Below are positions 11,525 through 26,758 of a stretch of 64,000 bases of DNA, piece by piece (the first letter of the stretch is position 1; each line of letters begins with the position of its first letter). The notes under the pieces were generated by a model, which had not been told where the DNA came from, did not search any database, and saw only the letters and a program-made list of their open reading frames with translations. The DNA is from Sedimentisphaerales bacterium (lineage in GTDB: Bacteria > Planctomycetota > Phycisphaerae > Sedimentisphaerales > SM23-30), in the NCBI GenBank assembly GCA_963663965.2, contig CAXXFK010000036.1, positions 45,089 through 109,088 of the forward strand. Direction: 5' to 3'. A program made the position numbers and the translations under genes.

Positions 11525-13426
11525 TCATTTCCAGAACTGCCACCATTTTTTAGAAGATTTTGTCGATACGGGGGCCGGCTCGGGCTCTGGTTGTAACTTG
11601 TTCGGGGTATGAACTGGCTGTTTTTTCGCCGGGGGTTGACCGTTGACATGGATAGTGAGTCCAGGAGAGTCAGATAGTGACTCACCTGTGGTCTGGAGAT
11701 CGATGACAACGAAATCGCCCTTGAGACTGACTGCCAAAAGGTAACGCTGAGAAAGCAAGGCCATATGATAAGCTTCAAAGTTTATCGGAGCAACGGCCTG
11801 CATGGTTTTTTGTTTTCTATCACATTTCCAGACCGCATCAGGTTGTCCGGCCAGATAGATGGTGTTCAGTGCGTCATCGCCTGGAATCAGGGTGAAAAAT
11901 GGTTGATGCGTCCGGGGATTCGACAAATCAATCGGATCACCATCTTGATTGCCCTGATCATCCACCCATAGCAGGATTGGGGACATCATTTCCGAACACC
12001 AGAGGCTTCGGTCCCTGCTGTTAATCAAATGATGACAGCAATAGCCGGGCATCCCATACTGGTACATATCCAGATGGATATGGTATTCATTTGGATTACT
12101 GAAACGATAGACCATTTGTGAGGCATACTGACCGGCAATGAGATCCCCGTAGTCATTAAAATAAAATACCTCGAAGGAGCCTGAATAGGAGTTAGGCACG
12201 GGAAACTGTCCTAATGTTATTTCTTCCTGGTAGTCGTAAATTACCAGTTCAGTCCTATCGGCAATGGCTACATGAGGATGGCAGGGAGACAGGGCGATTC
12301 GTTCCGGGTTTTCTATGGGGCAATGGCAGGTGACGTTGGCGCCCTCCAGTTCAATATGCAGTTCGGAGGCCAGGGCGTAAGCTTGTCCATGAGGCGCAAT
12401 ATACACGCAATCGCAGGACAGATCTTGTTCGATGATCTGGATATCGATGACGGGCAGGTCCGGGTTGTCTTTCAAATCGAAGGAGAAGAGCTGTGCACTA
12501 TTTTTATCGAAAAGGAAACGGCCGTTGGCGCCGGCTTGTTCCAGAGACTCAAGCGGGCCGTCATCGCTGTATTCGTTCAATTTGCCTTCCGCGACAATCG
12601 GGCAAGCCAGGTCATTCAAAACGGTGGCATTGATACCGGTTAGCCTTGGTGGTTCCTGGCTGATTGCCGGGGAGGCATCCGGTCGGGTTTTCTTTGCCGC
12701 GCTTTGAGGTGTGTCAGAATTTTCTGGCAGAACCGGGTTGATTTCCATCGGCATGATATCATAAACACACTGGACAGATCGCCGATAATCCCTTGAGTAT
12801 GCCGATAAATCATCGTGAAATTGCAGAACAGAGGCCAGTTCCTCTTGTAAGGCTTGGCGGCATTCCAACGGCAGCGCCAGGTCGATGTCATAGACGGCTT
12901 GAGGGGAGGTTGCCTCCTGGTATTGCCCAGTACTGGTATCGTAAAAGCTGGTGGTGCTCATACTGCGATCGGCAATTGTCACCACCAGGGTATTGTTTGT
13001 GAACGCGTCTTGATAAAGCTTTACCGTGGTGTCCCGTTCATCCAGACCGTTAATCATCTCCAGGAAAGGGTTCGGTTTGCCAAAAGCTTCGCGTAAAGAA
13101 CCCGATTCCATTCCAACATAGATGCCGACCAATCCGCCATATTGAGTTCTGAAGAAGGAAAACGCGATTTTGATATCTCCTTCAATCAGTTTGCCGGTAT
13201 AATCGTCTAACCGGGTCAACAGGAATGGTCCCTGATCGGAATCCAACCGGAAAAAACCGGCGCCATGTTTATTGATGGTTAAATGTCGATAATTGGCCGA
13301 GAGTAACAGGGTGCCAAATCGAGATGCTTTATGCATGCCCTGGGGGACGCAAAGCACCACCTGACGTAAATTTTTATCTGGATCTTCGGCAAAATACCAT
13401 TTCAAGTTGGATTGATCGTCACTCAT
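11525..13426 (-). CDS. Hypothetical protein, possible beta-propeller C-terminal half, KKWWQFWK tail
   Basis: 633 aa ORF with AAGGAA RBS and WD/YVTN-like blades (IALSPCHPHVAIAD, VFYFNDYGDLIAG). Confidence 0.6.
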   Translation of the reverse strand: MSDDQSNLKWYFAEDPDKNLRQVVLCVPQGMHKASRFGTLLLSANYRHLTINKHGAGFFRLDSDQGPFLLTRLDDYTGKLIEGDIKIAFSFFRTQYGGLVGIYVGMESGSLREAFGKPNPFLEMINGLDERDTTVKLYQDAFTNNTLVVTIADRSMSTTSFYDTSTGQYQEATSPQAVYDIDLALPLECRQALQEELASVLQFHDDLSAYSRDYRRSVQCVYDIMPMEINPVLPENSDTPQSAAKKTRPDASPAISQEPPRLTGINATVLNDLACPIVAEGKLNEYSDDGPLESLEQAGANGRFLFDKNSAQLFSFDLKDNPDLPVIDIQIIEQDLSCDCVYIAPHGQAYALASELHIELEGANVTCHCPIENPERIALSPCHPHVAIADRTELVIYDYQEEITLGQFPVPNSYSGSFEVFYFNDYGDLIAGQYASQMVYRFSNPNEYHIHLDMYQYGMPGYCCHHLINSRDRSLWCSEMMSPILLWVDDQGNQDGDPIDLSNPRTHQPFFTLIPGDDALNTIYLAGQPDAVWKCDRKQKTMQAVAPINFEAYHMALLSQRYLLAVSLKGDFVVIDLQTTGESLSDSPGLTIHVNGQPPAKKQPVHTPNKLQPEPEPAPVSTKSSKKWWQFWK

Positions 13427-18126: not shown

Positions 18127-19170
18127 TCAAACCATGGTATGAGCCTGGGCGATGATATTGAGCATGGCGGCGGCCTGTTTGCGGACTTCGCTATCGCTGT
18201 GAGTGACGCGGCCGTTCCATTTGCGGTATTCGCGGCTGAGATAATTTTTGATGTCGCCGGGCAGCATGTCCGGTTCGATCCCCAGGATAAAACCGGGATC
18301 AACCTGTTCCATGCGGGTGACGGGCAGGTGGACTTCGAGGAGATTGCGGAAGCGGGAGCGGTTGATTTTAAAGCTGATAGCGAGATTATCAAGTTCGTGG
18401 AGTTCGGTCATAACTACCTCACCACGGGTACATAATACATCCATACATTGGGTAAGAATGGCGATCAGCCGTTTGCGGGGTGACAGCCGGGTGAGTTCCC
18501 GAATCAGTTCTTTGCGGAGGTTCTGTGGCGATTTAAGGCGGGCCAGTCCTTTAAATAAAAGCGCTTTCAGATTGCCTTTGATGGTCATACCGGCCTGCAG
18601 AGCCGGCTGGTGACCTTTGGGAACGAAGGTCCAGGCCAGAACTTCGCCAAGGTGGTCGATGTAGGGTTCGAGTTCGATTTCGTCGAGGAACCCATTTTCA
18701 GGATTGTGAATAACAACGACAGATTGAGCCAGGGCCAGCGGGGTATTCATTTGCTCGTGATCGGCGTTGATGGAGGCGGTGACCAGGATTTTACGGTTGC
18801 CTCTACGGGCAAAATGCAGGTTATGATAATCGATATCGGCAATCGCGGTCCAATCGGACAGCGTGGCGGTACCCACGGGCAGTATGCCATTAGAAGCGGA
18901 GATGCGAACGGTTTCTTCCGATAGAGAGGGATCGTCTTTGATCCGTACGGGCAGGGGATCCCTTTGCGATTGGGTGATATCGAGCATTTCAAAGACGATG
19001 GTGGTGGCAAGATCGGGTTGGGGACTGTAAACAGAGCCCCGGATTTCAAAAATAATTCTGCCGGAGACATCATCTTTTTCGATTCGCGGGCGAACATTCA
19101 GATCACTGCTGCTGAGCGCGGGCGAATCGGCTTCCTTTTCAATGACTGGCTGTACCAGAGTTAGATTCAT
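18127..19170 (-). CDS. TerB-like plus degenerate J-domain protein (DjlA-like architecture, no HPD)
   Basis: CMDVLCTRGEVVMTELHELDNLA is TerB-like. The C-terminal DPGFILGI..DIKNYLSREYRKW...AAAMLNIIAQA is J-domain-like. It lies downstream of the Hsp70 gene. Confidence 0.6.
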   Translation of the reverse strand: MNLTLVQPVIEKEADSPALSSSDLNVRPRIEKDDVSGRIIFEIRGSVYSPQPDLATTIVFEMLDITQSQRDPLPVRIKDDPSLSEETVRISASNGILPVGTATLSDWTAIADIDYHNLHFARRGNRKILVTASINADHEQMNTPLALAQSVVVIHNPENGFLDEIELEPYIDHLGEVLAWTFVPKGHQPALQAGMTIKGNLKALLFKGLARLKSPQNLRKELIRELTRLSPRKRLIAILTQCMDVLCTRGEVVMTELHELDNLAISFKINRSRFRNLLEVHLPVTRMEQVDPGFILGIEPDMLPGDIKNYLSREYRKWNGRVTHSDSEVRKQAAAMLNIIAQAHTMV

Positions 19171-19197
19171 AGCTTTCCCTGCATTATTCCCAAAATT

Positions 19198-20745
19198 TTA
19201 CCTGGTTTCAAAGCGAGCGAGTTCTTCTGTCTGTTTCTGGATATTGTTCGCGGAGGCATCCCCATTTTCGCCCATGTTGAATTCGACATCGAGCGTTTCA
19301 CCGGAATTGTAGTTCGTGAAACGGCAGTGCATACGCTGATTCAGGTCATAGCTGTAGGTGGCGCTGATGGGCGTGCCGGCAGGGGTGCCGGGCGGCAGTT
19401 TGAAAGTTTCGTTGGTGAGCACATTGACAAAGGCCGGATCGGTATCTTCACCCTGGGTAATGGTAATACGAACGTGTTCCTGATCATCAACCATGGTGTA
19501 GAAGGTCAGGGTTTCTTCGCAGGGCAGCGGGGTGTTTTTGTGCAGAATGGGAGTGTTGATCAGAATATGCTGGCCGGTTTCTTTGTCAAAGGGGGCGCTG
19601 AGTGTGCCATAACTATGATTACAGACATCCTGTAATTTGACATCGCGGAGTCCGCCGGCAATGCCTTCGGAGACCGATTCGGGTTTTTGGCGTATGGTAG
19701 TCAGGCCCGCGTGGATCGCGGCGCCCAACGCGACGCATTCATCGACGTTCACGGAATTTTCGGGTGGGAATCCGAACATTTCTTCCAGTTTCTGGCTGAC
19801 CATGGGGATCCGGGTACTCCCTCCAACGAGCAGGACACGATCGATATCTTTTTTCGTGCAACCGGCTTCGCTTAATACGGAATCGATGAGCATTTCGGTG
19901 CGGGCCAGCAGTGACGCGATCGCCTGTTCGAATTCCGGCCGGGTGATTTCGGCGCGGGCTGAGCCAGTCGGTCCGTAAAGGATTTTCTTGGCAATATCAC
20001 GCCGGGACAGGGTCTTTTTGGTGTCTTCGGCCTCATCTTCGTACTTGGCAAGGTCGACATCGGAAGCGATCAGGTCTTCGTTACACTGGTCGCGATAGTT
20101 GTTTTTGAAAATTTCGAGGATGCTGCGATCGAAATCGATACCTCCCAACGCGTGATCGCCCTGAGAGCAGAGGATTTCCATATCACGCCCGTTGATATCC
20201 ATCAGGGTGACATCAAAGGTACCGCCGCCGAGGTCATAAACCAGGACCCGGCCGGAGACATCCTGTTTGGTGGCATAATAGAGCGCGGCCGCCACCGGTT
20301 CGTTGACAATACTGATGACGTTGAGACCGGCCAGGGCGCCCGCGTCCATGGTGGCTTTGCGGCGGATTTCATCGAAATGAGCCGGGACCGAAATTGCGAC
20401 ATTGTCAATCGATCCCACCTGAGCGGCGGCATCCTGGGCGAGTTTGCGTAAAATCAAGCTGGACAGTTCGACGGGAGTCCATTCCCGGCCGTCGATTTTA
20501 ACTTTATAATCGGTACCGATATGGCGTTTGATCCAGCGAACGGCCCGTTCGGGATTGAGCAGTCGTGAATTAACCGCTTCGACGCCCACCTGCACCACAG
20601 ATGGATTTTCTTCATCGAAATAGAGCGCGGAAGGCGTAATGCGTTCCCCCTCGCTATTGGGGATGATTTCGGGGCGTCCAATTCCATTAAGAATTGCGAT
20701 CGCGGAAAAGGTGGTACCTAAATCAATACCTGTTATTGTAGCCAT
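19198..20745 (-). CDS. Hsp70-family protein (short, no alpha-helical lid; not canonical DnaK)
   Basis: GIDLGTT, IIPNSEGERITPS, VNEPVAAAL, VYDLGGGTFDVT, LGGIDFD and LLVGGSTRIP. ATG at 20745 follows GGAG. Confidence 0.93.
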   Translation of the reverse strand: MATITGIDLGTTFSAIAILNGIGRPEIIPNSEGERITPSALYFDEENPSVVQVGVEAVNSRLLNPERAVRWIKRHIGTDYKVKIDGREWTPVELSSLILRKLAQDAAAQVGSIDNVAISVPAHFDEIRRKATMDAGALAGLNVISIVNEPVAAALYYATKQDVSGRVLVYDLGGGTFDVTLMDINGRDMEILCSQGDHALGGIDFDRSILEIFKNNYRDQCNEDLIASDVDLAKYEDEAEDTKKTLSRRDIAKKILYGPTGSARAEITRPEFEQAIASLLARTEMLIDSVLSEAGCTKKDIDRVLLVGGSTRIPMVSQKLEEMFGFPPENSVNVDECVALGAAIHAGLTTIRQKPESVSEGIAGGLRDVKLQDVCNHSYGTLSAPFDKETGQHILINTPILHKNTPLPCEETLTFYTMVDDQEHVRITITQGEDTDPAFVNVLTNETFKLPPGTPAGTPISATYSYDLNQRMHCRFTNYNSGETLDVEFNMGENGDASANNIQKQTEELARFETR

Positions 20746-20802
20746 GGTCCAAGTCTCCAATATATTGGATGCATTCGTATTACAAGCGAAGTTGTCTCAA
20801 GT

Positions 20803-22197
20803 TTATCCGGCCGCTACGGCGCATTGCGCCTGGTATAGCATCACTTGCGCGGTCCGTACAATTTTGGGTTGTTGCGAGTCGACGACATAGCGGTATCCGG
20901 GGCGGATGACCGCGGCGATGGCGCCGTCACGTTTGGGATCGGCGCATAATTTTCTCTGTTTAACGACTTCCATACATTTTTCCTGCCCTTTATACTGGGA
21001 ATCCAGGTCCGGACGATATTGTTCAATGCTGGAGGATTCCAGCGCGAATACCAATTCATCATAGGCATTTTGCAGCGACGTGACATCTTCGCCAGCCATT
21101 TCCAGTTTTTCGATCTGGGTTTCGAGGTTGTCGATGCAGCGGATGATCCTCAGGCAGAAGTTTTTCAGAATGTTCCAGTCATAGCCATCCTGATATTTTT
21201 CGATTCTGGATTGCTGGCTGGAAGCGTATTCGCGCAGGGCCGTTAATTCTTCGGTCAGTTTGCCCAGGTCGCTGGGTTCCGGTTCGGATTTGATTTCGGC
21301 GGAAACGGCGATATTTTTTTGATTTTGAAGCTGAGGCGGTCCAAAAGCCGAGGGTGGCGTATTGTCCGTCAGCGGTTTTGCCGCCGTTTTAACCATATCC
21401 AAATCGTTTTGGCGATCTTTGGGAATTTCCGAAACGGTGTGATTCCAATTGGCCTTGTTCAAACGCGCCGCAGCAGGCGGGCTCTGGCTCCAGAATTCAG
21501 TGGTATTATATTGTAACTGGCGTCTCTGGGAGATACGATCAGAAACGGATGAGTCGTCTTCAGAAATTTTGGCAGCCGGTTCCGGTTGCGAGTTGACCGG
21601 AGCGGTTGCCGCGCTCTGTGAGGCCGGCTGGGAAGAACTGGCTCGTTCTTCGGAAGCGGTCTCTTTCTGAGCGTTTTGATGCTGAATGACGGAAGAGGCA
21701 AACGGATTTTTTTTGCCAACTTTCGATACGATACTGACCAGCAGCCACAGGATCGATATGATAAAAGCCAGACTACTCACAATCGTGCCCAGTAAAGCAT
21801 ATTGCATCCACTGGTGTCTGGATTGCATATCGGCGATTTTATCGTTGGCAACGGTTTTCCAGTTGGCGCCGTACAGTTCACGGGCGTAGGGCCCCGGTTC
21901 AAATTTTCCGGCGGCTATGCTTTCCAGGCTGGCCAGCAAGTGCACCCGCTGATATTCCGACTTTTTATCCATAGGCGCTTCGCCATAGGGTTTGCGTCCC
22001 CAGGGGGATTGGAACTGCTGATCCAGGGGAAGGGCTGACCATTCGCGATATTGCTGCCAATAGGGATCTTGAGATGTTTTGAATTCCTGACGACATTCGA
22101 GGATCTCAGCCAGTGAGTGTTGATAATTTGAAGACGCGACGTAGTATAGCGCGCCGCATCCGCAGGTGATTATCAAGAGGATGGTTCGTATAATCAT
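20803..22197 (-). CDS. Membrane-anchored GrpE-like nucleotide exchange factor
   Basis: C-terminal GrpE-like region (coiled coil, LRIIRCIDNLE, GAIAAVIRPGYRY, IVRTAQV), two N-terminal hydrophobic helices and an S/Q/P-rich linker. Confidence 0.72.
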   Translation of the reverse strand: MIIRTILLIITCGCGALYYVASSNYQHSLAEILECRQEFKTSQDPYWQQYREWSALPLDQQFQSPWGRKPYGEAPMDKKSEYQRVHLLASLESIAAGKFEPGPYARELYGANWKTVANDKIADMQSRHQWMQYALLGTIVSSLAFIISILWLLVSIVSKVGKKNPFASSVIQHQNAQKETASEERASSSQPASQSAATAPVNSQPEPAAKISEDDSSVSDRISQRRQLQYNTTEFWSQSPPAAARLNKANWNHTVSEIPKDRQNDLDMVKTAAKPLTDNTPPSAFGPPQLQNQKNIAVSAEIKSEPEPSDLGKLTEELTALREYASSQQSRIEKYQDGYDWNILKNFCLRIIRCIDNLETQIEKLEMAGEDVTSLQNAYDELVFALESSSIEQYRPDLDSQYKGQEKCMEVVKQRKLCADPKRDGAIAAVIRPGYRYVVDSQQPKIVRTAQVMLYQAQCAVAAG

Positions 22198-22251
22198 ACT
22201 GGGGCCCTCATTTCAAGTCGATTGATTTTGGGGATTCGTATCAATCATAAG

Positions 22252-23343
22252 TTATCGGGTTTCACCCAATTCGGGTATTTTATTAAGACTCAGGCCGAAA
22301 GCCAGGGACCATTCGTAATTGCCGGATTCATTGGTGATGTCGCTATGGGGACCGACGAGAGTTTCCGGCTGGACCTGACTGATCGAGTCGGCCAGTTGGG
22401 CGGGAAGTTCGAGCGCCTGGGCCAGTGACTGACAGAAACCGGTCTGACAGGCCAGGCCGCCTAAAAAGATCAGGCTGTTTAAAGGCTGATGCGGGAATAA
22501 CATATCGTGATACCAGATGCAATGTTGAATTTCGTCCCGCAAATTGCAGTATATTGCTTTCAAATGGGTATTTTGTTTTTTCAGGGTCGCCGTGGCGGTG
22601 TTGCCGCCAGATGCCTGGGCGTTGCTTTCGGACGCTCCTTCGTCATGGTCGTGATGGGCGGCCTGACAAATTTGTTCAGCGCCAATGGCGATATTGCGGG
22701 AGAATGAGAGTTTGTCGCCATGCAGGCCGAGGATGCGGGTACCGCCAAAACCCAGGTCAATGATGAAGTAAGCAGAATCCTTAAGATGGGATTTTTGAAT
22801 CAGGGGGGCAAACCCGCTGATCAGACCGCAGGGTTCGATGTTAATTTTGTCCGCCTCGAGTTTGCACTTATCCAGAATCCCCATGTAATACTCGAAGGAT
22901 TTTTTGGGGACTGCCATCATGATAACTTCTTTGCGTGTTTCATTTTCTTCATAGATGTCACCCACCACGGTATGACGGATAATTCCGTGTTGCGGGTTAA
23001 AAGGCAGCCGATTGGCCGCTTCCAGCTCAATTTTTTCTGCGATCTGGGCCTGGGGGCAGTTGAGCCGGATATGATCAATAAAAACCTCTCGAGATGGCAG
23101 CGCCAGACAGACTTTGCGGCCTTTGAACGGTTTGACCGTCATGAATTCGCGGATGGTTTCAATAAACCATTTCTGGCGAGTCATCTTATTGGGCCGCAGA
23201 TCGGCGGGAACTTCGGCCCGGGCAGCCGCCACCAGAGACAGCTTGTCCTGGTTTCTGGCGAGTTGAACCATTTTAAGGCTGTCGGATCCCATATCGATGC
23301 CAATGGGAAGAACGGTTTTGTTGTTATTGAAAATATTGAACAT
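22252..23343 (-). CDS. pilM: Type IV pilus assembly protein PilM-like actin-fold protein
   Basis: PIGIDMGSDSLKMVQL, IIDLGFGGT, LIFLGG and terminal LAFGLSL. Confidence 0.8.
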   Translation of the reverse strand: MFNIFNNNKTVLPIGIDMGSDSLKMVQLARNQDKLSLVAAARAEVPADLRPNKMTRQKWFIETIREFMTVKPFKGRKVCLALPSREVFIDHIRLNCPQAQIAEKIELEAANRLPFNPQHGIIRHTVVGDIYEENETRKEVIMMAVPKKSFEYYMGILDKCKLEADKINIEPCGLISGFAPLIQKSHLKDSAYFIIDLGFGGTRILGLHGDKLSFSRNIAIGAEQICQAAHHDHDEGASESNAQASGGNTATATLKKQNTHLKAIYCNLRDEIQHCIWYHDMLFPHQPLNSLIFLGGLACQTGFCQSLAQALELPAQLADSISQVQPETLVGPHSDITNESGNYEWSLAFGLSLNKIPELGETR

Positions 23344-23833
23344 TTCTAATTCAGAGACCGGTATCGCTCCGGTTCCTCTGCCGCAGGGTCAAAATAATTG
23401 GTTAGCTTTTGCAATATATGTTACAGAGGATGGGGAGGCAAACCTGATAGCTGGTATCTGGAAGGTTTTTCTATCTTTTTTATTTTGTGGGTCTTATGTA
23501 TAGCTTAAAGTCGGATGATTTGTTACTATTCATATAAAGATGATTATTTGGAGAATGCTTAAATTTAGTAAAATCGTTATAATCAGAAACATTCAGAAAA
23601 TTTGTACCATCCTATTTGCGGTATAATGGCCAGGAGGTTGTATTTGCGATGTGATTTATTTAAGTAACTATCCCATGTCATGTCATTGAAAAAACCATAA
23701 AATTAAACCGAAACAAGAGTTTTGAATTTACATACGGATTGAACGGTCATAAGATATCGGTCATTGTATTGTGATAGATCCCAAACAAATTGATTATTTT
23801 TTGGTTATCATATATCCATGAGAAAGGGCTGAT

Positions 23834-24752: not shown

Positions 24753-24871
24753 ACAACCAGAGTCCGGTTGATTAAGTAGCCGGGTTATCTTTTCTCAAGC
24801 GATCTGATCCAATCGATAGTTGGCTAAATGAATTATTGAATCGATAACTCTATTTGTTTTGGAGGTTAATC

Positions 24872-26758
24872 ATGGCTGAGCAGGAAACGCAGGTGACTGG
24901 TGAAGTGAAGGGGCAAGAAGGGCGTGATGATCGGGAACGATTTACTAAACTGGGATTTTTAAAAACATACCTTATGCCAGTCTTGATGATTTTTCTGATT
25001 CCCGGTTTTTCATGGTGGTTTTTTAATTATGTGCAAAGCGATTATGATCAGGAAGCGCTGGAATCCATCAAGGCGAGTTTGTATAACGAGCCCAATATGC
25101 CTGAAGAAAAACGGGCAGCTGTGCTTGTGTTTCATGAAAAAATGCCCCTGTCAAAGATTTTGAGTATTAACGATCCTGTTCTGGATGACTTTAAGAGCGG
25201 GATTAATGACAGTGTCAAACGGGATTATTTTATGTTTCACTGGTTAATTATCCTATCCGAAATATGTTTGTACTCGGGGGCAGGAGTTTTTGCGATAGCC
25301 ATTATCGCCGTGCTATTATCCTTTAAATCCCAGCAGATTCAATACCTGAGTCTATCAACCGGTTGGCATGTCCTCAGGTTTTTTTCTGTTCTGCAAGTTG
25401 TGGGGCAAGGATGTCTGGCGCTGGCATTATCATTCTGGATAACCGCATTCTGGTTTAATATGTATGTGCCAAAAATTATAATCATTGTCGGGATTTTTGC
25501 TTTGTGTGCCATTGGTTTGATCATTAAGGCCATATTTAAAAAACTGGATAATGACTTTATCATTAAGGGAGTTTTATTGGATGATCGTCGGGCAGAACCC
25601 CTCTGGCGTCATATCGGGAGATTGGCCGACAAGTTGGGAACTGAAAGACCTCAGCAGATCATCGCGGGAATCGATGACAATTTTTTTGTAACAGAGCAAC
25701 CCGTTACTGTTGAGGGCAGGCAGTATTTTGGCAAGACACTCTATTTGAGCCTGCCGTTGATCAAACATATGAAGAAAACTGAGGCCGATGCTGTCTTAGC
25801 CCATGAATTGGCACATTTCAGCGGCCGGGATACCCTGTATTCCAAAAAAATTTCACCACTATTGGGACGGTATCATTATTATCTGGTTGCTTTGTATGAG
25901 GGGGGAATCACCCGGCCAGTGTTCTCATTTATGTTGTTTTTCCGGAGTTTGTATCAACTTTCGATCAGTCAGTTAAGCCGGTCGAGGGAGTATCGGGCTG
26001 ACATGTTAGCCGCCGAGTCGACATCGCCGCTGGATCTGGCACATGCCCTGATAAAAGTTTCCGCCTATTCAAATTATCGAGACAAGGTTGAACGGGGCTT
26101 GTTTGAAAAGGAGCATGTCCAGCATTCATTGGGTATTCGAGAATTGATCGCCAAAGGGTTTGAGAGTTTTGTCAGAACAGAGATATCCGATTCGGAGATC
26201 AATAGCACTAAAATCGTGCATCCATTTGATTCTCATCCACCCATCGCTCAACGGATTCAGGCGATTGGCGTTGAAAGTACATCGAATTATTGCGAGGAAA
26301 TACTGCTCAAGCCTGTTGATGATAGCTGGTTTAATGAAATTGAAAATGCCGAAGAATTAGAAAATCTTCAATGGGCAGAATACGAAGAGGCGTTTTCGGA
26401 ATATCATGAACAAGCACTGTGTTATCGGTTCCTGCCGACGACTGAAGCCGAAAAAGAGATCGTCACTAAGCATTTTCCTGAGGTCATCATCCAAACGAAG
26501 AAAGATGAACAGCTAGTGATTAATTATGAGTCCATTCATTTAACGAGTTGGGATAGTCCGGTTTTATACGGATCGATAAAGAATTGCACCAAAGACAACA
26601 ATTATCTGGATATTGGCTGTACGGGTGGATTAAAACGGATCAAGTTAAGCGATTTAAAAGGCTCGCAAGAGGAAGTTCTGCATATGTTTGAAATGTATTA
26701 TGGTCGATATCTGCAAGCCAGGTCTTATCAGGAAAATAAGCAGAAAAATCACGAATAA
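24872..26758 (+). CDS. M48 (HtpX-like) membrane zinc metallopeptidase
   Basis: Several TM helices, AVLAHELAH, REYRAD and DSHPP. ATG 24872 follows GGAGG. Confidence 0.85.
   Translation: MAEQETQVTGEVKGQEGRDDRERFTKLGFLKTYLMPVLMIFLIPGFSWWFFNYVQSDYDQEALESIKASLYNEPNMPEEKRAAVLVFHEKMPLSKILSINDPVLDDFKSGINDSVKRDYFMFHWLIILSEICLYSGAGVFAIAIIAVLLSFKSQQIQYLSLSTGWHVLRFFSVLQVVGQGCLALALSFWITAFWFNMYVPKIIIIVGIFALCAIGLIIKAIFKKLDNDFIIKGVLLDDRRAEPLWRHIGRLADKLGTERPQQIIAGIDDNFFVTEQPVTVEGRQYFGKTLYLSLPLIKHMKKTEADAVLAHELAHFSGRDTLYSKKISPLLGRYHYYLVALYEGGITRPVFSFMLFFRSLYQLSISQLSRSREYRADMLAAESTSPLDLAHALIKVSAYSNYRDKVERGLFEKEHVQHSLGIRELIAKGFESFVRTEISDSEINSTKIVHPFDSHPPIAQRIQAIGVESTSNYCEEILLKPVDDSWFNEIENAEELENLQWAEYEEAFSEYHEQALCYRFLPTTEAEKEIVTKHFPEVIIQTKKDEQLVINYESIHLTSWDSPVLYGSIKNCTKDNNYLDIGCTGGLKRIKLSDLKGSQEEVLHMFEMYYGRYLQARSYQENKQKNHE

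Follow-up and report, generated by a model that had tools for sequence, protein, structure and literature searches.

The window analysed here is a stretch of 64,000 nucleotides (nt) from a Sedimentisphaerales bacterium (assembly GCA_963663965.2, contig CAXXFK010000036.1, positions 45,089-109,088 of the forward strand). Four of its minus-strand genes encode, in this order, a PilM paralogue (P0001), a membrane GrpE-like exchange factor (P0002), a lidless Hsp70 (P0003) and a J-like partner protein (P0004); the last three make up the module. The initial annotation had described four co-directional genes with gaps of 54, 57 and 27 nt, values that were reproduced exactly. The GC content of each gene is 50-54%, against 50% for the contig. 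The features of the locus are the following (window coordinates, with the evidence for each gene in brackets):

23344..23833, no strand assigned: AT-rich divergent intergenic region, presumed operon promoter
22252..23343, minus strand: pilM paralogue P0001, 363 residues (Pfam/TIGR01175, PDB PilM matches, tree, alignment)
20803..22197, minus strand: membrane GrpE-like exchange factor P0002, 464 residues (AF2 model, Foldseek, VIA)
19198..20745, minus strand: lidless Hsp70 P0003, 515 residues (Pfam, phylogeny, residue alignment)
18127..19170, minus strand: beta-sandwich/TerB/J-like partner P0004, 347 residues (structure comparison, family profiles, complex prediction)
19107-18700, minus strand: beta-sandwich of P0004, residues 22-157
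18684-18322, minus strand: TerB-like part of P0004, residues 163-283
18309-18130, minus strand: J-like hairpin of P0004, residues 288-347

The three downstream genes would constitute a self-contained, conserved Hsp70 set separate from the DnaK system of the cell. Canonical dnaK (contig C24) as well as dnaJ and grpE (C15) are present elsewhere in the 7.2-Mb genome that carries the window (G000), and the window set is therefore additional to them. We conclude that the module is a real, conserved and specialised Hsp70 triad, and very probably a dedicated functional one. The initial proposal of a dedicated, membrane-tethered and divergent Hsp70 triad is borne out by a conserved gene order, by an Hsp70 clade of its own and by the outcome of complex prediction. 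No description of a GrpE-like/lidless Hsp70/TerB-J module was found in our literature searches, and the module is apparently undescribed; relevant papers beyond the literature searched may cover it.

Three divergent members of an Hsp70 system

P0003 is identified as an Hsp70, with an actin-like nucleotide-binding domain and a beta-type substrate-binding domain (SBD-beta), by its Pfam match (E=9.6e-100) and by the residues K70, E171 and T199, which, like P143, R151, K414 and N415, are retained in 83 of 83 members of its clade, and by linker residue D393 (82 of 83). It is 33-34% identical to DnaK and scores far below the DnaK equivalogs (340 against 823 bits for TIGR02350, 338 against 648 bits for PRK00290). 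The full lid and canonical J site of a DnaK are missing: the chain, 515 residues when counted from the ATG (the open reading frame (ORF) finder starts at a TTG at 20760), stops at about the first lid helix, and clade members are 509-527 residues long. Compared with E. coli DnaK, P0003 has a deletion in lobe I and a shorter GrpE-signature loop; 11 residues are inserted ahead of the linker, and loop L1,2 is longer. The score against the HscA model is likewise low (269 against 709 bits), and neither isc genes nor HscB were found beside P0003 among the window ORFs and Pfam matches. In a FastTree phylogeny of 110 Hsp70s, the triad clade and a sister type associated with M48 peptidases group together with support of 1.0, apart from DnaK, HscA and HscC, the last represented by a single long-branched sequence used as the root. 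P0003 branches at the base of the group formed by the other families compared (f5, f6 and f7), with poor support. Triad Hsp70s are 51-66% identical within the clade, and the only two named records of the clade show 63-64% identity. An acidic-then-hydrophobic tail, E-x-x-x-F/Y-x-V-x, is conserved at the C-termini of the clade Hsp70s (12 relatives shown; window 19198-19240); as speculation, it might act as a self-binding pseudo-substrate.

P0002 matches Pfam GrpE below threshold (E=2.9e-4, score 21 against a cut-off of 25.8). Alignment of its family to E. coli GrpE by hhalign is weak (E=0.036), and a hidden Markov model (HMM) search of PDB sequences with the same family alignment gave no significant match. 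The predicted structure has the long helix, helical hairpin and beta-domain of GrpE: the ten best Foldseek matches are all GrpE, and VIA comparison yields Z-scores of 11.2-12.5 over 145-150 aligned residues, with root-mean-square deviations (rmsd) of 6.4-11.1 Å. In the AF2 model, a first transmembrane segment (TM1, residues ~1-20) is followed by a helical domain, a second such segment (TM2, ~131-161), a disordered linker (~163-306) and the GrpE core (~308-457; window 21276-20827). The helical domain between TM1 and TM2 is likely periplasmic. Both hydrophobic segments are present in 62 of 72 long homologues, and P0002 is the sole membrane-anchored triad member in the window genome.

P0004 itself has no Pfam match, and TerB is matched by 11 of 19 members of its family. 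Its model (pLDDT 85) superimposes on TerB with a Z-score of 9.3 (rmsd 6.2, 127 aligned) and, according to VIA, on the J-domains of P58IPK (Z 7.3, rmsd 1.9, 56 aligned) and DNAJC12 (Z 6.9, rmsd 2.7). P0004 thus has the helical fold of a J-domain, with Z-scores that are middling for a helical hairpin and that are backed by hhalign, which aligns the end of TerB and the J region of the family with E. coli DjlA (E=5e-4, probability 32%). A Foldseek search with the entire model returned no meaningful match, and an HMM search of PDB sequences with the J-like alignment found nothing significant. An N-terminal TM occurs in 26 of 37 genome-derived homologues and is lost in P0004. At the position of the HPD motif, P0004 carries HSD (18201-18193), and the motif, invariant in J-domain proteins, is found in 29 of 147 family representatives. 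The best conserved positions are W318 (147/148), Y315 and R321 (134/148 each). These counts come from unselected representatives of a profile search; the invariance of EYxKW..R in metagenomic loci was discounted, since those loci were found by that pattern. The initial observation of a divergent triad, departing from DnaK, DnaJ and GrpE, is confirmed.

Conservation of the triad and the genes at its head

We collected 117 loci with the J-like gene, 37 genome-derived and 80 metagenomic, close kin and near-duplicates included. The order GrpE-like, Hsp70, J-like is intact in all 69 loci with at least 3.6 kb of upstream sequence, the 48 shorter loci being left out of this count, so that the survey of gene neighbourhoods confirms the three genes as conserved neighbours. 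One short locus (L029) speaks against this regularity, its J-like gene having no Hsp70 in the 1.8 kb upstream. The J-like gene is present in 24 of 24 f6 genomes and the triad Hsp70 in 61 of 91 f7 genomes; the module was not found in 24 other genomes of the window's own family (62-99% complete). Across the phylum, 18 of 401 genomes matched. Of the five distant phylum matches, two are Hsp70-J-M48 operons and two resemble ordinary TerB/J proteins; the fifth is a J-like gene at the end of a contig. The P0004 family profile recovers 606 clusters at 50% identity (E<=1e-30). A genome scan with the Hsp70 alignment was dominated by DnaK, 2 of its 80 loci belonging to the triad clade. In two loci genes are broken, by frameshifts or assembly errors: the Hsp70 lies in two frames in L026:7947-9508, and both Hsp70 and GrpE-like gene are split in L042:4409-7544.

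The window genome also carries an operon of the sister type (G000:C21:120556-125216; L035:6557-11217), which encodes a soluble GrpE-like protein of 258 residues, a lidless Hsp70 of 514 residues (40% identical to P0003), a TM-TerB-J-like protein of 400 residues and an M48 peptidase of 374 residues. Operons of this type likewise end in M48 in L140, L245 and L246.

P0001 belongs to the PilM family by its Pfam PilM_2 match (E=1.7e-17; 63.9 bits against a cut-off of 27) and keeps the nucleotide-binding motifs; it reaches 95 against 133 bits for TIGR01175. A second pilM heads a pilM-pilN-pilO-X-pilB-pilT-pilC operon followed by prepilin-like genes (G000:C36:36716-44129; L036:6717-14130), which lies on the same contig, ends ~1 kb before the start of the window and is ~19 kb from the module. 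Both proteins fall inside the PilM clade of their own family (96/95), each on a long branch. In 12 of 12 own-family orthologue loci, pilM is directly followed by pilN, and after P0001 comes the GrpE-like gene. By clade placement and these orthologues, P0001 is likely a lineage-specific duplicate of the pilM of the pil operon. Because the operon PilM is as diverged from the family orthologues as P0001, sequence comparison suggests that both copies changed after duplication. The initial description of a pilM without pilN and pilO is correct for the locus itself, where neither follows P0001, and fails for the contig, where a full pil operon lies nearby.

A link to the pilus is suggested by a second gene of this operon. 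Of 67 scorable loci, 26 have a same-strand gene within 100 nt of the GrpE-like gene on its upstream side, and in each case it is pilB; the remaining 27 same-strand neighbours are at least 138 nt away. In three f7 genomes (G057, G041 and G317), the pilM-N-O-X-pilT-pilC operon lacks its pilB, and the copy in front of the triad is the one that best matches the operon pilB of the window genome; in all, pilB heads the triad in 18 of the 61 triad-bearing f7 genomes. In model bacteria, PilB docks in PilM (PMC11656802). About two events, which brought genes of a single operon in front of the module, are the basis of the pilus link and make it no more than suggestive; a pilus-motor client remains a tentative proposal. 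If the link were true, the triad would be a chaperone dedicated to the type IV pilus motor, of which we found none in print.

Several observations weigh against this link. No pilM stands beside the triad in the 117 other loci, and none of 23 f6 loci has a pil neighbour. In f7, 32 triad-bearing genomes keep pilB within the pil operon, compared with the 18 in which it has moved (its position could not be resolved in 7 genomes, and 5 triad-bearing genomes have no pilB match). The pil operon occurs without the triad Hsp70 in 19 f7 genomes and in the window's own family (Hsp70 0/24; pilM 14/14). These genomes hold 7-11 pilB/gspE paralogues, and a pil neighbour can therefore arise by chance. Moreover, the triad-heading pilBs may stem from one event: with 17 of 18 triad-type and 28 of 51 operon-type f7 pilBs, the free tree gives at least 3 changes, monophyly is not rejected (approximately unbiased test, p=0.41), and several independent moves are not demonstrated. 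The co-occurrence of Hsp70 and pilB in f7 (56/5/20/10, Fisher p=0.005) is inflated by kin and incomplete genomes, and we discount it. The original pilus argument from pilM adjacency is not supported as stated; the idea itself is still not refuted, since in part of the sister family f7 the module is headed by the pilB of this pil operon.

The most serious alternative, which we rate slightly short of even, is that the same membrane triad serves non-pilus clients, as in the membrane-protein quality control or disassembly proposed for HscC/DjlBC, and that pilM and pilB arrived by rearrangement and share its promoter. Consistent with this view, upstream neighbours vary between loci, f6 has a conserved promoter-like element of its own and lacks pil neighbours, the sister-clade operons end in an M48 protease, and the pil operon often occurs without the triad. 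Against it, two genes of a single pil operon, with products that interact in model systems, are the only ones found at operon spacing before the module.

In many f7-type loci (L027, L042, L127, L151, L153, L162 and L183), an ECF sigma/anti-sigma-like pair adjoins the module. A second gspE/pilC-like cluster adjoins in the same loci, even where no pilB is attached.

Predicted coupling of the Hsp70 to its J-like partner

In DnaK, the HPD motif of the J-domain contacts L391, P419, R167 and Q378, and K48 contacts D477 (PMC8215388 and PMC13012618). HPD-dependent activation is described in PMC8215388 as valid in every Hsp70 system tested. Most of the corresponding residues have changed in the clade of P0003. 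R167 is Gly, Ala or Ser in 83 of 83 Hsp70s, even in loci with an intact HPD; Q378 is His in 76 and kept in 6; positions L390 and L392 mostly carry polar residues; all 83 have Cys in place of T420; and D477 is mostly Ser.

Complex prediction for the Hsp70 and J-like pair, one of the checks proposed at the outset, gave a score of 0.71 against 0.01 for the best control, passing a mark that is reached by 116 of 157 solved pairs and by 2 of 215 mismatched pairs. Between runs, at least 92% of the contacts are the same, and the partner pLDDT is at least 79. The predicted contacts on the Hsp70 comprise residues 125/128, 195-199, 277-292, 386-392 and 432-442, which in DnaK numbering are 147/150, 222-226, 310-325, loop L1,2 and 443-453; the canonical J-site residues are absent from this list. 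Among the contacts are clade-specific changes, namely P319L (82/83), D450 to Tyr or Phe (83), R445D (70) and T225H (83). The J-like hairpin of P0004 is thus predicted to bind P0003 at a surface other than the canonical J site, and we lean, by a modest degree, towards a non-canonical coupling of the two proteins.

The opposing view is that the J-like domain still sits on the canonical J site, both proteins having changed in compensation, and that the alternative pose is a modelling artefact. L391, P419 and D393 are still present in the clade, HPD is intact in 16 of 82 paired loci, and the commonest residues at the HPD positions are still His (80/148) and Asp (125/147). Compensation has a precedent, in that DnaJ D35N suppresses DnaK R167A (PMC13012618). 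Clade-specific conserved residues are not over-represented in the predicted interface (10/32 versus 113/483, p=0.21), and, J/Hsp70 complexes being present in the PDB, the pass of the prediction may partly reflect likeness to them. We nevertheless consider canonical docking rather unlikely: R167 is gone from every clade Hsp70, including those encoded beside an intact HPD, and the best-conserved partner residues, on helix II, fall within the predicted alternative interface. With its HPD and receptor residues both decayed and a specific alternative interface predicted, this natural clade offers a direct biochemical test of another trigger of Hsp70 allostery, and all three soluble parts are amenable to expression.

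Proposed cycle and relation to known systems

The explanation that we favour, with a probability of roughly 0.55, is a self-contained triad with non-standard J docking, recycled by its membrane GrpE and possibly remodelling PilB/PilM. It builds on observed features, namely the gene order, the folds, the retained ATPase and allostery residues and the loss of the lid and of most canonical J contacts. In the predicted complex, Y315, W318, R321 and I340 of P0004 would dock on Hsp70 helix 281-292, residues 195-199 and loops 386-392/432-442 of the substrate-binding domain. This docking may trigger ATP hydrolysis, while the beta-sandwich/TerB part would present a narrow client. Without a lid, binding should be brief, which would suit remodelling instead of general folding; at the inner membrane, the GrpE-fold protein with its two TMs would reset the Hsp70 cycle. 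The client could conceivably be the PilB/PilM socket, the cytoplasmic motor of one type IV pilus system. The boldest form of this explanation, an Hsp70 subfamily devoid of HPD/R167 signalling that is switched from another face by a J-fold partner replacing lost lid contacts and that, tethered to the membrane, is a dedicated loader or remodeller of a planctomycete PilB/PilM type IV pilus motor, appears unlikely as a whole. First given here are the instance headed by pilM, the loss of the canonical J site traced residue by residue, the prediction of an alternative J interface and a tally of pilB moves.

The triad might instead act as an envelope signalling switch: a cue perceived by the periplasmic domain of the GrpE-like protein would control nucleotide exchange, and the Hsp70 would toggle a single partner. 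Such a role would fit the lidless Hsp70 and the helical domain that most homologues conserve between their two TMs. We regard it as improbable, as the periplasmic domain is much shorter in two f5 proteins, a disordered linker of ~140 residues separates it from the GrpE core, and no regulator gene is conserved nearby in the loci surveyed.

An anti-phage or conflict role, raised by the initial annotation and recalling the Hsp70-GrpE theme of GAP1-N2 GTPase systems, would accord with the TerB-like domain, the patchy loss across families and the Hsp70, GrpE and DnaJ-fusion genes of those systems (PMC7159879), yet it is very improbable and lacks support, given PADLOC matches to none of the four window proteins and two weak single-member matches among 19 family members, no conserved GTPase- or effector-type further gene in 15 loci examined gene by gene, and high sequence conservation with retention in every f6 genome.

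The favoured triad shares with that theme (Kaur et al. 2020, PMC7159879) a private Hsp70 and GrpE with a J-bearing partner in one neighbourhood; it differs in phylum and in its TerB/J-like partner, with no GAP1-N2 GTPase or FNIII/DnaJ fusion in the window and no further conserved gene in the loci read. E. coli HscC with DjlB/DjlC is similar as a short specialised Hsp70 beside membrane-bound J-proteins; a deletion in lobe I, a shorter GrpE-signature loop and an insertion in L1,2, all found in P0003, are also described for HscC (PMC8215388). P0003 is nevertheless 31% identical to HscC and on a separate branch (in a tree rooted on that single long-branched HscC), has lost the R167 that HscC keeps, and at 515 residues is nearly lidless, whereas HscC has 550-580 residues and a lid. 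HscA and HscC, both specialised bacterial Hsp70s, work without an exchange factor. Unlike them, the window Hsp70 keeps a private membrane-anchored GrpE, and in all 69 scorable loci a cognate GrpE gene precedes the triad Hsp70.

DjlA, the TM-TerB-J co-chaperone of DnaK in E. coli, resembles P0004 in having TerB followed by a J domain and in the N-terminal TM of most P0004 relatives. P0004 differs in its extra beta-sandwich, unconserved HPD and longer helix II, and is encoded with its own Hsp70 and GrpE, whereas DjlA serves DnaK. With DnaK-DnaJ-GrpE the triad shares the three functional classes, the GrpE fold and most ATPase, allostery and peptide-pocket residues; it differs in its lidless Hsp70, at the identity given above, and in the two TMs of its GrpE. 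The triad works like HscC/DjlBC or DnaK/DjlA/GrpE and is a member of neither.

The presumed promoter region (23344..23833) holds TGACCGATA (23755-23763, minus strand), which is like an element upstream of the module in f6, possibly by chance. No upstream sequence shared by the two pilM genes of the window genome was found, and no CIRCE-like repeat was found in the window. In f6 and L041, a conserved sigma-70-like promoter element, TTGACC + 17 nt + TAnnnT with conserved spacer, precedes the GrpE-like gene (L024, L030-L034, L041, L124, L125, L129-L132, L136, L138 and L139). A GACCGA match lies upstream in 19 of 23 f6 loci, and the f6 element was not seen upstream of pil operons. Many f6 loci have a 620-residue multi-TM protein without Pfam match at 230-390 nt upstream of the module (L022:13601-15463 and homologues); it has 1183 homologues, a few of them with Pfam PF13525, and a relative at G000:C26:81177-82859.

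In the window, the strand opposite to pilM carries a membrane M48 peptidase 1.5 kb beyond that gene (24854-26758, plus strand), and a 633-residue protein without Pfam match (11525-13426, minus strand) lies downstream. A fourth Hsp70 of the genome (C28:185698-187359; L039), 553 residues long and 30% identical to P0003, closes a gene run that by eye resembles a contractile-tail/type VI-like cluster, adjoined by transposase-like and reverse-transcriptase-like ORFs.

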